DNA from: Trichoplax sp. H2
Lineage: Eukaryota
Reading direction: 5' to 3'
NCBI GenBank assembly: GCA_003344405.1
Contig: NOWV01000128.1
Coordinates: 124,001-188,000, forward strand
DNA length: 64,000 nucleotides
The notes under the pieces are model-generated. The model saw nothing but the letters and a program-made list of their open reading frames with translations, ran no database searches and was not told the DNA's origin. Positions within the stretch are counted from its first letter, which is position 1, and every line of letters begins with the position of its first letter. Of this stretch, positions 6,281-29,721 are shown in pieces. Made by a program: the position numbers and the translations under genes.

Positions 6281-8582
6281 AAAATACTTGCAAAATCAGT
6301 AAAGGTACAGTAACAAAACGCTCATCTAGAGACTAATGATAAAATAGTGTTACTGTTAATTATTAATAACATGGATGCAAAAATTGATCAGACATCATAA
6401 ATTTTGATAATAAGACTAGATTTAGTATAGCTTAGCATGATACTTAAGGTTCAGCAGAACCTCTTCTGAAGAACTTCAATGACCTCTGTAGAGATAGCGA
6501 TCGTTACTATTTATAATATTTCACTGTCATTATTTTCATGCTAAATCACTGTAAGAGATTATTATCGGTCACATAATTAGCTATCTTGACAGTTTCGTAA
6601 TCCCTAGAGATATCCAAAGTGGAAAATATTGATTATTATTGACATTTTGTTTACAATTGAATCGGTCTTGAGCAACAATCTTCAGATTTGCTTCAAATAG
6701 TATTGATGTTAAAAAAATACTCAAACAGGGATATGATAATCCCACGAGAGAATTGTAGTCAAAAATTCTACTTGTTATAAAGTTAGGTTCAAAGAATATA
6801 ATAATGAATTTAATCTAAGTAATTTTAGGCATGCTTACACATCATGATATATTATGGTCTATAACAGCACTGGCTTGGAGATACGGCAAAAACATTGTAG
6901 TAGGCCTTCAAGTTTAAAAATCCGTAACTTATTTTTAGTTTTAAATTAAACGATACTAGGTTTTCCCTTATTAAAACAGTATTACCGTAGTAGGACAATA
7001 CTTTGAAAGCTAAGCATCCCGCAGACAATCGCCTTCCCCACAAGTCTTTTCTCTGTATCTCGCTGGTCCCAAGGGAATTCTGTTTTTATAGGAGATGGCC
7101 TTCCGATACGACTTGTTTAAGAATGTCCAATCAGTAAAATATATTGCGAAAGCTATAACCACCAATCGTTAGAAAGAGTCAGTCTCACTTATTTGCTACC
7201 ACGACGCAAAATTGGACTCAAGCTTCCTCGCTAAGTTTCAGACCCAGCTTTTGACATTTTCAGGGTAAAACGCTTACAGTTAAATTATTTTATGTAAGTA
7301 CAGTATATCGTAAATGGAAGAATGCAGATTTAGTGCTTTAGGACTTGTATATTGTAATATTAATAGTGGATGAAAAATAATTTAAAACCCGACATTGCTT
7401 TAACTAGTAGCCACTTCGAATACTAACTAAGGAAAAACACTAGATTATTGTAATTTTAACAAAAATTTACGAAAATTACTGAAAGTAATACAGAAAGGTA
7501 CAATAATTGCCTTAGCCAATCAAGACATGAGAAAATGAAGATTAGTCATGATTTAGGAGTAACCAACATTTTAGCATTATATCTTCGGTATTCTCTACAA
7601 TTTCAACTACTTGACTATTGATCTATCGAATTGTAACCCTTTTTTCATGCTGCACAGAGCAATTAGTGAAATCAGACTAAAAAATTGTCTATCTGAAGAA
7701 TTCTAAGTTAAACTAATAGTTATAATTAATCTCCTAGATTTTAAGATTGACTTTATCCTATATTTTCAACACTACTGAATTAATACTAGTCACATTTGAA
7801 CCATAAATTAAGTCTTTCTACAGCATACAGCTTACAACTTAAAAAATGAAACAGAATAGCATCCCAAGTTTGAATCTAGATCAAGCATTTGAATTCACAT
7901 CGGATTCTGTGATAAAGTCTACAACTTCTACCATAATTTCTGATCAACAGTCACTACAGATTTTATCTTAATTGAAGCTAAAATATCGTAGATACTAAAT
8001 AACCTAGCGGTTAAATGACAATTTTATAACATAATGCTTATCAAAAATTATACTATCAAAATATTACTTAATTAGAAGCCAAATAAAGTAGTAGGTTTTA
8101 CCTTATGCTCAATTAATAAACGAAATCTAATAAAATTAAACTTCGGTAAATTAGTTACTTATAAATCCACAGTATCTATTTTAAAGAATATGGTACTTAT
8201 CTACCAGCCAGAGGACTTTTACACAGAGCTACTCGATATCAAATCTTTACACTTAAATCTTAGGAATAAGACAGTGCTCCGTTGATAATACCCTGAAATA
8301 GCTACGCAAGAATTAAGGAACAACTTTACGATTTATACTGTGCTAAGTTCACTGTATTCCTATGGGTGTAACACGTATTTTGATCAGTAGCAAATAGAAA
8401 CGATCCGCTAGTCAATCGTTTACCGCTGCAAATCGTGAAAACGTTCGAATACAATCTTCACTGTGCTGTTTCTTTGTATAGTCTGTCATATCGTTCGTTA
8501 TAATAACGAAGCAACATTTTTATTGCTGCTACTATCGCGGCAAATTCTTATTTCTGTCAAATTCTATTTACCCCTCATAGCA

Positions 8583-10131
8583 ATGAAAACTGAACTTATT
8601 ATAATTGCCACTCTCATTCTGATCGTTGCATCAGCAGCCAGTGAGGGTGAAGAATTTGATGATAAACATATCACAGAATTGCTTGATGAACAAGACCCTT
8701 TTTATTTGGAGGAGATGGATATAATCGATACTGACGCAGACGGAAATGATATGGTACCTGAGGTATTTAAAAACTGTTCACTATACTTGTTTTGTGTATC
8801 CTTTGAACAATTATTTCAAGATAAATTAACTAGCTACTCTTTTCAGTCTAAACTTAGTTTGTAGTCACTCTGAAGTGCGTACTTTGGTACAGAATCTTAA
8901 CCCAAAGTGGAGTGTCTATCGATAACATAAATGATTAAAAAATTTGTCTGTTTACATTATATTGTATCTTTCTATATTCGAAATCATTAAAAGCGAGTTA
9001 GGATCAAGATATTGTTAAATATAAAATTTTTAGAACTGATGCTATTTTAAATTTTCTATTCCTTATTATGCGACATATGGCGCCCATATCGTGCCCGTAA
9101 TTATATCACTTCAGTCGAACTTCGTAAGTATGACATAATCATCTATTTAAATCAATTCTATTTAAAAGTTTTATTTGTGCAATGGTGATACTTTTAATTT
9201 GGTCTAGTATCAAAGACTGATATTATAGCATATATTGTAGAGAAGTTTTACAGTACGAAAATATTACATATACGTATTAAGAACTAATTTTATTATAAAT
9301 TTTTCTTTCATTCATACTCTATGCTGTCATTATAACCTTTCTGATGATGACTTGCTTACAAGGCTGTAAGTCTAACAAAATCATCTACGATTTTAATTAC
9401 TTAACACCTTTACGCGTAAATAAATTTCTTTATTATGATTTCGACATATCTAAATATCATCAAAAATGAAACATATAAATGATAGTGTGTAACGTATACC
9501 TAGCTTTATTACAAGATATGGTTAAATCTTAATTTAAGAACTGATGTTTTTATACAAATTTTATTCGTCTCTTCTATATGACATCAACAATATGGTTTCA
9601 ATCATCATTACAAATGCAGCCTGTAAGTTTAGGATATTTATATACATTTTCAATTTAAGTAGTATTATAAATTAATTTCTTTTATATATCTTGATATCAC
9701 TAATATCATCAAACATCAAATATCTTACTTAAAATGATGGATTATATCATAGCTTAACTTTGTAATAAAATAGTATTTAACATTAAATTTAAGAACTGAT
9801 TTGATTATACAATTTTTTTCTTATATACCCTATGCAATATTGATATCATGAAATTTAATCATCATTTCCATTGTAGCCGGTAAGTTCGTCCTAATCATGT
9901 ATAATTTTCTCTGTATAATCGTTTGATCAAACATTTTATTTCTTATTTCGATTTCACATAATCTCTTAAATCTTTAAAACACTGAAATAATAGTAAGCAT
10001 CATAAATCAGTTTTATTACAAAATAATGTTAAATCTAAATTTAGCAGCAGATTTGTTAATTAGCATAGCAAATTTATAATTCATTTTGTGTACTAACAAT
10101 AGCATCACTATCCTCTACGTAGATCAGATAA
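8583..10131 (+). CDS. Small secreted prepropeptide (signal peptide plus acidic pro-region) with a microexon-encoded C-terminus
   Basis: Exon 1 (8583-8762) encodes MKTELIIIATLILIVASAASEGEEFDDKHITELLDEQDPFYLEEMDIIDTDADGNDMVPE, then GAG|GTATTT. Microexons: 9115-9123 TCGAACTTC, 9363-9365 GCT, 9620-9622 CCT, 9877-9879 CCG, each AG...GTAAGT. The last exon starts at 10123 after TACTAAC. The simplest splice gives ...MVPE-SNF-A-P-P-IR*. The C-terminal frame is uncertain. Confidence 0.7.
8990..10122 (+). repeat. Degenerate ~250 bp tandem repeat of intron-plus-microexon units (about 5 units)
   Basis: Recurring blocks AAATTTAAGAACTGAT, TTATACAAATTT and GTAAGT..AATCAT. Acceptors are spaced 248, 257, 257 and 246 nt apart. 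Confidence 0.85.
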
Positions 10132-13100
10132 TGAATTATCTTGCTTACTTTATAGTATATTGATTTACAGATATGGGTAGAGTTGATGGACATCTGATTT
10201 CTAATTCTTGATAAGCGACTTTCGTCGCGACAAATTCACGGAATTATTTCTAATGTAGCGTGTGTACAATCTAAAGCTAAATCGTGAAATGCAACCATAA
10301 TAATTTTTTCGATTATTTTAAAATGCTTGCGAATTCAAAACAAAAACGTAACAAACTGTATTGGAAAAAGTGGGTAAAGTCCAGCTATAAATCGGTTAGG
10401 AACTATACTGAATGTGTAATGTCTTTAAATTTATGAGTAGGTTTATAAATGTCTTACAGATCAGTATTTACTATACCGCTTGAACTTTGCCAGTATAATC
10501 TTCAGTTTTTTAAAGCAAATTTCATACACGCTATGTCTATATAGGTAGCAAACATGCATTATTTAATTATGAACAATTGTATAAAACCAGATAACATTTT
10601 TGGATAAAATTCTTTAATTTATCGCATACCCGAGACCTATCATATAATGATACGGTTGTACGATTTTTTTCAACAAGACGCATACTAATAACTTCTACTT
10701 CATTAATAATCTGTATCAAATTGATTAGAATGATAAGAAATGAAAAACCCATGCTATGTGGTAAGAAATTTACTTTGCTATATTTTCTATTTATTATCAA
10801 TGAAACTCCAGTACCTTTTCTATCAAAGAGGGTGGCTTATCTTTATTCAGTTTATGAGTACATCAAAATATTTGTAATTAATATTGTTAAACAGATAAAA
10901 AAATTCAGATTTTCTACTATTTTAAAATATAAATTATTCACTGCCGTTGCATACAGTTTTTAATTAAAATGAACTAAAATCAAGAATAACAATTTAAGAG
11001 CTGATGATAGCTGTATCATTGTTAGTAATGCCATTCTTAACGAACTACTTAGGTATGAACAGCAATCTATTTGCCTGCAACAAAGTAATAGATTATTAAA
11101 GAGCGAACGAGATTGGAGATGATAGAAATATGAAGGGCTTCAGAATTGCAAGAGAATCATGACATAAAGCGGGCGGTAGTTAATAGGAAGTAGAAGCATG
11201 CTTTCTCTTACCATATGCTCATAATAAGAATTAGCTAGCATAGATGGATATAAATATAATAGTAGAATTGTAGGCAATCGTAAAAGCGATTAGAATTCAA
11301 TACTTTTAGTAAAGGTTCTAAGTAAAATCACCTCTACGTAGTTTCTGCTTTCATAGATTTTTACTTTCGTGAATGTAAGATTGTGAAGCTAAAATAAAGT
11401 GAACTTTTGAAATAAAGTAATACTGGGTAAAAGTTTGTATTATCTTGTACAAAACAAAATATAATCTACTGGATGCAATTGATCTTTACTATTCTGTCCT
11501 ATGGATTGCGTTTACCTAACTAATAAAATCATAACAAGGACAATTTCTAAATTGGATTTCTACCGGAAGTATTTTTACCAATGTTCGTTTATTTTAAATT
11601 TAAGAGATCTTCTTTCAACTTCATATAAATTTATCACTCCTAATGTTAATCGAATTTATGCTTGCCAAAAGTTCCAATAAGTTGTCGTTACTTTCGGTCT
11701 ATCTTAACCTTAAATTTAACGTAACTATTCTGATTCAGTCTATTGAGCAACAATTCCCTCTTATTTATAATTATTAGCAAAAAATGATATATTCATAATT
11801 GTTATCGTAAGTGCAGCATGTAATTTTGACATAGAATATACAAAAATTCGTAAATTTGGAGTTGGTAAAAATAATGAGCCGTCTTAGTACTACTTATTTA
11901 CTCGGAATAAATATGCACTTTTGAGCTATTAGGTTTTATTATGTTATATTCCTAAAATTAAATCTATTTTAAAGATAAATCATTGCAAAATTCGGCAAGA
12001 GTTAGATGTAACAGCACTTATTGCAGGTGCATCATTTTTGTAACAATCAGTTTTAAGGAAATATCGGTTTGAAATCCTTGAAGCTATTGAATGCTAACTA
12101 AAGTCATCGTAAACACTGTAGCAATAATAATTTAAAATACTGTATCAATTCTAGTTATCACTGGAAAAGGTACAAATATGTTAAATTTTATATCAATTAT
12201 TCTTTCGAACGAAAATATGATACGACAAATCATATGATTGAGATAGCTAAAGGAAAATATTTAAGAGGGAAATTTCTTAATACTTACTATAAACGAAGTT
12301 ATTCGGTTTCGGTAGAGGATTTTAGAAATATCGTTTATTAGTGTCTAGTTTATCTTATCTTAATATGAGTACTTTTTTATCATAATTAAAGTCTCGCTTC
12401 ATAAACAGCACTAAATTTAATAAAGGAGTAAATATAAGACCATACTGTATTAACTCTATTACATAAACAACTATAAAATACATAGCCCGCATGCGCTCTT
12501 TCATTTGCAAGATGCAAGGCTAGCGAACACTAAGCCACTTCTTTACACTTACTAACTTGATTTTAAACGTAAATATTGTGCAATAGCTAAATAACTTACT
12601 AAGTTGACATGCAGCATCTTTATAACCTTATTCATTTGAAAATCTAGGAAATTTCTTTAAAAATAATTTCTCGATGTTACGATCATACCAATCATATCAA
12701 ATTTTGAAAATTCTACCATAATTACTCAAATAGTCTGCAAAGGTATACGCTGAAAAGCTTTCAGTAAGTATGCGTCCAAGATCATTCCATTTATAACGCA
12801 AGCTTTTAGCCGCTGCACGAAAATATTCTAGAGGATCTTTAAAGTAATTCTCAGTAAAAAGATTGACTTAAAGTACCTAATAATTAGAACGCTCTTACAC
12901 ATTGTAACAATCGTACAAAAATACCATCTTTTAATAGCAATCTGCTCAGAAATACTCCAAATTATTTTATCCAAAAATCCCGCGGATGGAAGTGTGAATC
13001 TGTTAATTTTATCTAGCTGTTCTATGCCTAACATGCATCAGTCTAGAACGACACTTAAAATTGATAGTAAGCCTCGATAGCATCATTTTTACTTTAACTT

Positions 13101-20550: not shown

Positions 20551-29721
<9,171 letters not shown>

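Follow-up and report, generated by a model that had tools for sequence, protein, structure and literature searches.

The stretch analysed here, called the window below, comprises 64,000 nt of Trichoplax sp. H2 DNA (assembly GCA_003344405.1, contig NOWV01000128.1, positions 124,001 to 188,000 of the forward strand; all coordinates are those of the window). Within an AT-rich region of it (G+C about 29% across 8001-10000) lies an array of four microexons, three of which are a single codon long. The locus appears to be an expressed Trichoplax gene whose predicted product is a small acidic, putatively secreted protein, and the gene seems to be unannotated. Positions 8200-10800 were compared with the contigs of four runs (X1, X4, X6 and X11); such contigs drop rare forms. 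By its record X11 is an RNA library, with cover that stops at 9765, and X6 comes from another study. The exons are the following:

7264..7293, + strand: non-coding upstream exon, 3′ end; GTAAGT comes next and the splice leads to 8581; the loose ends before 8581 in X6 and X4 match it apart from 1-2 letters
8581..8762, + strand: first coding exon (exon 2), with ATG at 8583 and 60 codons; contigs X6 8581-8762 and X11 8283-8762
9115..9123, + strand: microexon 1, TCGAACTTC, 9 nt, Ser-Asn-Phe, between AG 9113-9114 and GTAAGT 9124-9129; opens the 18 letters after 8762 in X11 and X6, with G9117 read as A
9363..9365, + strand: microexon 2, GCT (Ala), or GGT (Gly) in another haplotype, then GTAAGT; loose ends, single-nucleotide polymorphism 9364 C>G
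9620..9622, + strand: microexon 3, CCT (Pro), then GTAAGT; loose ends
9877..9879, + strand: microexon 4, CCG (Pro), then GTAAGT; loose ends, and an X6 contig joining microexons 1-3 to 9877-10058
10371..10394, + strand: probable fifth microexon, 24 nt, with the 3′ end given by a joint and the 5′ end and the link to microexon 4 predicted
10729..10760, + strand: next exon, with a stop TGA at 10741-10743 in the predicted frame; spliced on to about 11053

One contig each of X11 and X6 reaches 8762 and then continues with 18 letters that are microexons 1-4, with one synonymous difference. A second X6 contig joins exon 2 and microexons 1-3 to 9877-10058, that is, to microexon 4 plus the retained next intron, and an X4 contig runs from 8762 through microexon 1 and GGT into a retained intron 3. 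Since X1 is DNA-like (its depth is even over 30 bins, 8762 is crossed unspliced and no spliced loose end is seen) and does not contain the joined form, the joined form is RNA and not a processed copy in that DNA. The four microexons (9/3/3/3 nt) are spliced in series. Both partly spliced contigs, from X4 and X6, are upstream-first, which suggests that the introns are removed mostly in the 5′ to 3′ direction; none that skips a microexon is found among the contig pieces listed. The X11 contig covering 8283-8762 continues into the spliced microexons, so that it retains the 3′ portion of the 1287-nt intron upstream but lacks the microexon introns; the cover of 8283-8580 could reflect intron retention or an alternative start. 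Two haplotype differences fall within the microexons, namely 9117 G>A, which is synonymous in microexon 1, and 9364 C>G, which turns Ala, the whole of microexon 2, into Gly. Haplotypes about 4-6% apart coexist in X1 and X4 over 9449-9620, and when we looked for allele-specific retention of intron 3 together with 9545 T>A, both haplotypes were seen as unspliced contigs in X4.

Beyond microexon 4, a GT..AG joint 10394|10729 is found at high depth (96.7 in X6 and 263.7 in X4), followed by a high-depth joint at about 10760|11053, where the loose end behind 10767 matches 11060 onward. It is likely that microexon 4, ending at 9879, joins the 24-nt exon at 10371-10394, as argued by a 92-nt AG-free zone before that exon, the start of an X6 contig at 10370, the depth, the open frame and the finding that the downstream exons alone contain no open reading frame over 25 aa. 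The frame stays open through WVKSSYKS in the 24-nt exon and closes after NDKK in the next one, and 10370 is where the spliced and unspliced paths would merge; no contig in the four runs physically joins 9879 to 10371. The zone in question is:

10277..10368, + strand: AG-free zone of 92 nt before AG 10369-10370; AG-free in 0.0009 of 20000 shuffles

An X4 contig (depth 14.3) is unspliced over 10366-10712 and then continues with letters matching about 10817, a skip of about 104 nt without GT..AG ends, for which an indel haplotype or an error of assembly may be responsible.

Each of the four microexons is preceded by the same arrangement of sequence elements:

9029..9040, + strand: unit 1 motif, TTTAGAACTGAT, with putative branch A 9039
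9034..9112, + strand: unit 1 AG-free zone, 79 nt
9052..9069, + strand: unit 1 pyrimidine tract, 15/18 pyrimidines, 62 to 45 nt from the acceptor
9277..9288, + strand: unit 2 motif, TTAAGAACTAAT, with putative branch A 9287
9282..9360, + strand: unit 2 AG-free zone, 79 nt
9300..9317, + strand: unit 2 pyrimidine tract, 15/18 pyrimidines
9534..9545, + strand: unit 3 motif, TTAAGAACTGAT, with putative branch A 9544; 9545 T>A in one haplotype
9539..9617, + strand: unit 3 AG-free zone, 79 nt
9558..9575, + strand: unit 3 pyrimidine tract, 15/18 pyrimidines
9789..9800, + strand: unit 4 motif, TTAAGAACTGAT, with putative branch A 9799
9794..9874, + strand: unit 4 AG-free zone, 81 nt
9813..9830, + strand: unit 4 pyrimidine tract, 15/18 pyrimidines

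The initial annotation of this DNA had placed a CTRAT within AGAACTRAT, with its A at 9039, 9287, 9544 and 9799, at 75, 75, 75 and 77 nt upstream of the four acceptors, and all of these coordinates are correct: AGAACTRAT starts at 9032, 9280, 9537 and 9792, CTRAT at 9036, 9284, 9541 and 9796, and the G of the acceptor AG lies at 9114, 9362, 9619 and 9876. AGAACTRAT occurs five times on the + strand of the window, the extra copy being at 21929, as compared with a chance expectation of about one per strand by a rough estimate from base composition. In an alignment of the four units, TTAAGAACTGAT is the best-conserved 12-nt window, with a mean pairwise identity of 0.92 (the alignment mean is 0.47, and the splice-site block reaches 0.71). 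Since a search of Rfam over 7000-11500 with E values up to 1 gave 0 matches, no intronic snoRNA or other known RNA accounts for the conserved block. AACTGAT or AACTAAT heads the AG-free zone in 4/4 units, with one mismatch (at position 1) to the branch rule given in Gooding et al. 2006 (PMC1431707).

It had also been noted that no AG occurs between the motif and the acceptor, and this holds for all four microexon units, the last AG upstream of each acceptor being the motif's own. The acceptor used is the first AG downstream, because the RNA contigs hold exactly 9+3+3+3 letters after those AGs. The second AG gaps, counted upstream, are of 23, 26, 21 and 18 nt, so that the first gap is three to four times as long as the second in every unit. 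As controls we used 23 introns of an ABC transporter gene of the window, which were rebuilt from a predicted protein and may in places have imprecise borders. The median AG-free zone among them is 41 nt (range 9-90, n=23), and a zone of at least 79 nt is found in 4/4 microexon units versus 2/23 control introns (Fisher p=0.00085). CTRAY occurs within the zone plus 15 nt in 5/23 of these controls, with its A 16-63 nt from the acceptor. Over the whole window, AG gaps of at least 79 nt amount to about 1% (43/3611 on the + strand and 35/3592 on the - strand). A pattern scan of the kind proposed in the initial annotation, run on the 64-kb window, returned 41 sites of the form AG-N(3-30, multiple of 3)-GTRAGT on both strands; CTRAY heads the zone only in the four microexon units, and a zone of at least 79 nt is found only before the four microexons and at 12732. 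The latter site (12646-12769, + strand) has an 84-nt AG-free zone ending at AG 12732-12733, an open stretch of 30 nt and GTAAGT, and may be a further microexon of some + strand gene.

The T-rich tract reported behind the motif was likewise recovered, with 15/18 pyrimidines at +13..+31 from the motif A in 4/4 units. It is about 18 nt long and lies 63-44 nt before the acceptor, with no pyrimidine richness in the final 45 nt ahead of the AG. In the 15-nt bin -62..-48 the mean pyrimidine fraction is 0.83, versus 0.48-0.58 in 22 control introns. All four units have GTAAGT as their donor, versus 1/23 controls (p=0.00028). Folding of the region from motif to donor gave no stable or shared structure that would shorten the distance (z = 0.85, -1.19, 1.08 and -0.27).

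The array is a tandem duplication of a unit of about 250 bp made up of an intron plus a microexon. The repeat units were aligned with MAFFT and a repeat search, giving a mean column identity of 64% over five units; Tandem Repeats Finder found nothing over 7000-12000, because the units are too diverged. The microexon-array introns are 239-352 nt long, and the six extra bases that separate motif and donor in unit 1 are its six extra exon bases. Since the four units are diverged copies of one ancestor, they do not represent four independent events, and the fixed spacing of 75 nt may be inherited. Two further copies follow the live ones:

9977..10140, + strand: dead repeat unit 5, in which AGCAGCAGAT (10043-10052) is the decayed form of the motif, AGs stand at 10062, 10067 and 10101, and the donor has decayed to AGATAA
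10157..10250, + strand: dead repeat unit 6, nearest to unit 1, with the motif decayed to AGAGTTGAT, an AG at 10214 in the former zone and no donor

The local alignment of unit 6 to 9009-9107 scores z=3.5 against 200 shuffles, and local alignments of units 2-5 to 10123-10400 are not above shuffles (z = -0.82, -0.51 and 0.57; unit 5 overlaps the target). Since both dead units have a decayed motif, have regained AGs (3 and 1) and lack a donor, motif, zone and donor persist only where a microexon is used.

From the sequence arrangement, we consider it probable that each live unit holds a displaced 3′ splice-site module, consisting of the conserved TTTAAGAACTRAT with a putative branch A 75-77 nt upstream, the tract, an AG-free spacer, the AG, an exon of 3-9 nt and GTAAGT. 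U1 pairs with donor positions -3 to +6, and U2AF35 contacts the acceptor AG. With such footprints the two sites would overlap on AG-NNN-GTAAGT, and if the branch site and tract lie 45-77 nt upstream, U2AF65 and U2 could assemble at a distance from U1. U2AF65 and U2 would thus assemble on the distal branch point and tract across the short intron, a step for which the AG would not be needed, and AG-NNN-GTAAGT would be left free for U1. The second catalytic step would then take the first AG downstream, as in the published scanning model, and because the first AG would be chosen, the spacer would have to stay AG-free. With intron removal running mostly 5′ to 3′, each one-codon exon would fuse first to the growing upstream exon.

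A number of points weigh against the displaced module, and some of them speak for other explanations. The order of splicing that it supposes rests on two contigs among the contig pieces listed. The U2-pairing heptamer score of the motif is 8-9 of 12, which does not set it apart from other A/T-rich heptamers, and a common haplotype with 9545 T>A changes the unit 3 motif to CTGAA and creates a new AG one base past the putative branch A. In the control intron 26567..26424 (- strand) a perfect TACTAAC at -74 is accompanied by an AG-free zone of only 30 nt, so that the scanning rule may be loose in this species or that gene model may be wrong. The conserved block moreover spans 12-13 nt, which exceeds what a branch site needs, and candidates for branch sites other than the motif exist, namely TACAAAT at -61 in unit 3 (score 9), TATTGAT at -33 in unit 4 (score 9) and a second CTGAT at -18 in unit 2.

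The length of the block and the proximal yUnAy candidates in units 2 and 4 are also what one would expect if TTTAAGAACTRAT were a protein-binding intronic splicing enhancer (for example for a STAR/KH-type factor recognizing ACUAAY-like sites), with the real branch points located nearer to the acceptors. SF1 and Quaking have been reported to compete for ACUAA branch sites (PMC13004596). We regard the enhancer as unlikely. In 4/4 units the one strong pyrimidine tract comes immediately after the motif and precedes the proximal candidates, no CTRAY is found nearer than 75 nt in units 1 and 3, and the AG-free zone begins exactly at the motif in all four units, as the scanning model expects of a branch site.

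Another explanation is that no special mechanism operates, that motif, spacing and AG-free stretch are remnants of an AT-rich, G-poor unit that was duplicated, and that ordinary signals and strong donors suffice. The units were copied from one ancestor, and the spacing and part of the AG-free zone may have been inherited from it, which again weakens the case for the displaced module, as do the following observations. The array is AG-poor (0.036 versus 0.056 per nt), and its introns contain further long AG gaps, of 113, 88 and 107 nt. The per-unit probabilities of the zones are modest, at 0.026, 0.023, 0.21 and 0.09 when AGs are spread evenly and at 0.04, 0.13, 0.05 and 0.09 when the zone is shuffled; the joint probability would fall within the range from about 0.05, if the units are fully dependent, to about 3e-5, if the shuffle values are multiplied. 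By alignment count, indels in the zone are not clearly rarer than in the 5′ half of the units, and the haplotype variants, among the rows listed, show no depletion in motif or zones (about 6 in 144 nt of zones versus about 13 in 355 nt), so that polymorphism gives no clear sign of constraint. Against the leftover explanation, the motif block has been kept at the identity of 0.92 given above though the units diverged to 0.47, and in the dead units the motif has been lost and AGs have returned at roughly the density predicted from composition. The second AG gap is short in 4/4 units, and of the other 37 AG-N-GTRAGT look-alikes only the one at 12732 has a zone that long and none has CTRAY at its head. 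On this evidence we hold mere leftovers to be doubtful, even more so than the enhancer, and the upstream layout exceeds chance in part.

The weakest alternative, which goes back to the initial annotation, is a switch after microexon 4 to a proximal branch point, TACTAAC at 10091-10097, and to a terminal exon from 10123 adding Ile-Arg and a stop, and it is very improbable: the TACTAAC does lie 26 nt before AG 10121-10122, the heptamer is rare in the window (6 on the + strand and 10 on the - strand) and the frame would close two codons into the 10123 exon, but no joint to 10123 is found in the four runs (a minor use could escape, as contigs drop rare forms), X6 depth is flat across 10123 (10.2 then 10.1, versus 125 for exon 2), at C10093 within the TACTAAC the whole depth of X6, X4 and X1 has G, the 10122 site aligns with the acceptor of a repeat unit having a decayed donor, and high-depth joints are found only further on, at 10394|10729. 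What was stated about unit 5 stands as far as the decayed motif, the returned AGs and the position of the TACTAAC are concerned, and finds no support for the proximal branch point before a normal exon; unit 5 is more readily taken as a dead copy of the repeat within a 491-nt intron. An X4 contig (depth 6.4) skips 9982-10148 with CT..AC ends, corresponding to a minus-strand intron GTAAGC...TTTCAG that encloses the TACTAAC at 10091-10097, which points to a spliced antisense transcript of low level over dead unit 5.

Returning to the displaced module, one might go further and view the unit as a self-sufficient, copyable ‘one-codon exon cassette’, which would be read constitutively by a non-bilaterian core spliceosome without an eMIC-type factor and whose duplication would add one codon at a time to a secreted peptide. 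We put this forward tentatively, as a possibility that is rather less likely to be right than wrong. If it were true, the cis layout would be either older than the bilaterian eMIC programme or easily reached by convergence, and a placozoan secreted-peptide family, including a 66-aa Trichoplax sp. H2 relative of the exon-2 protein, would hide unannotated microexons.

The product of exon 8581-8762 has a hydrophobic, signal-peptide-like N-terminus, as judged by eye, followed by an acidic stretch. For this exon-2 protein of 60 residues no word-sharing candidate was found among 5.8 billion proteins (33-105 residues searched), and its sole relative among 1.84 billion representatives is the 66-aa Trichoplax sp. 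H2 hypothetical protein just mentioned (P0105), a weak match with 40% identity and E=4.2e-4. P0105 shares the signal-like start and the acidic stretch and stops abruptly; its abrupt end implies that its gene model may also miss microexons. The main text of a paper on placozoan secretory cell types (PMC12013895) contains 0 occurrences of four short stretches of the predicted peptide or of the word microexon. Elsewhere in the window, the ABCC/MRP-type ABC transporter gene that supplied the control introns lies on the minus strand (20554-27843) and has at least 23 short introns (46-322 nt) with mostly weak donors; one of its exons shares 98% identity with a Trichoplax adhaerens protein, and for many the identity is 100%. 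Long AG-free stretches paired by identical opening letters are found at 5070-5152/5904-5986 (+ strand, 834 nt apart) and 1227-1625/2801-3198 (- strand, about 1570 nt apart), and suggest that further tandem duplications took place near the window's start.

How an exon too short to accommodate U1 and the 3′ splice-site factors together is spliced is an open mechanistic question, and work on it has been confined almost entirely to bilaterian neurons, where the SRRM3/4 eMIC is needed. The present locus offers four RNA-confirmed microexons, three of them single-codon, each with the same sharply bounded cis elements, in an animal reported to predate the eMIC. The two decayed copies are built-in negative controls, and at about 1.2 kb the locus suits tests of branch distance, tract, AG exclusion and donor. 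It also illustrates that placozoan gene catalogues can miss small secreted proteins.

Among known systems, recursive splice sites (ratchet points) have an AG that abuts a strong GT, are used stepwise in the 5′ to 3′ direction in very long introns and leave nothing in the mRNA. The array resembles them in that an AG lies beside a strong GTAAGT and the donor would act only once the upstream intron is gone; it differs in that 3-9 nt between AG and GTAAGT are kept in the RNA contigs and that its introns are of ordinary length, as given above (239-352 nt).

The claim made at the outset that distal branch points come with long AG-exclusion zones agrees with Gooding et al. 2006 (PMC1431707), in which step 1 is AG-independent, step 2 uses the first AG met on scanning linearly from the branch, and AGs within 12-15 nt of the branch are bypassed. 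The array is like the distant-branch-point exons described there in that a long AG-free zone carries, at its 5′ end, a branch-like sequence and a pyrimidine tract, AG spacing upstream is normal and the first AG is used. Unlike the array, those exons are from human and rat and are mostly regulated cassettes of ordinary size with zones of 100-400 nt, whereas the array is placozoan, with zones of 79-81 nt, exons of 3-9 nt, four duplicated copies and a branch A that is putative (PMC1431707).

A further parallel in layout is with microexons that depend on the eMIC (SRRM3/4). In flies and mammals such exons show extended AG exclusion zones, strong branch sequences of the CUAAY type, tracts that are long and UGC motifs (PMC8797185), and in human and chick neural microexons the predicted branch points lie at a median of 45-47 nt versus 34 nt, which has been suggested to give physical space (PMC12871342). 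Thus the idea of steric relief has already been published for vertebrate and fly microexons (PMC12871342; PMC10250204; PMC8797185). The array shares with them very short exons, a long AG exclusion zone, a CUAAY-type branch-like sequence and a long tract, and mammalian microexons are also reported to have strong 5′ splice sites. It differs in distance, 75-77 nt as opposed to a median of about 45 (PMC12871342), and, whereas eMIC microexons are neural, alternative and mostly spliced downstream-first (58% of SRRM4-dependent microexons have the downstream intron removed first; PMC10250204), the two array intermediates are upstream-first and none is skipped among the contigs listed. TGC occurs within 30 nt of the acceptor in 3/4 array units (9085-9112, 9333-9360 and 9590-9617) and not before the 24-nt exon, compared with 4/23 controls; this recalls the UGC element of eMIC-dependent exons, in numbers too small to weigh. 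Since in bilaterians the layout goes together with eMIC dependence, the layout alone is no proof of eMIC independence. The eMIC domain is reported to have arisen in bilaterian ancestors (PMC8797185), which would place the array outside the eMIC-dependent exons, and it is from that one statement of its origin that a putative eMIC independence of the array is plausible.

At the level of the gene, the array is reminiscent of the micro-exon genes (MEGs) of schistosomes (PMC10526429), in which a signal-peptide or signal-peptide-like exon is followed by very short exons in multiples of three (9, 3, 3, 3 and probably 24 nt in the array) and the product is a small secreted protein missed by annotation. 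Unlike in the array, 10-20 microexons form most of the protein in MEGs; the array has five microexons, contributing 14 of about 78 residues in the predicted model. As to the length of MEG exons, 6 bp is the minimum and 15 bp the mode in the body text of that paper (PMC10526429), and its abstract has 3-81 bp; the array has three 3-nt exons. No sequence relation of the exon-2 protein to MEG families was found among the 5.8 billion proteins (33-105 residues) or the 1.84 billion representatives.

A full-text literature search combining Trichoplax or placozoa with microexon, supplements aside, returned only a mitochondrial cox1 micro exon, and the literature on tandem or consecutive microexons and 3-nt exons, again supplements aside, yielded no comparable array. 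The nearest array reported, as far as the available text goes, is that of RPS24, with three microexons of 3, 18 and 22 bp. What is new in the Trichoplax locus is the placozoan host, the occurrence of three one-codon exons in a row with the putative module at 75-77 nt, and the duplicated cassette located beside dead copies of itself.

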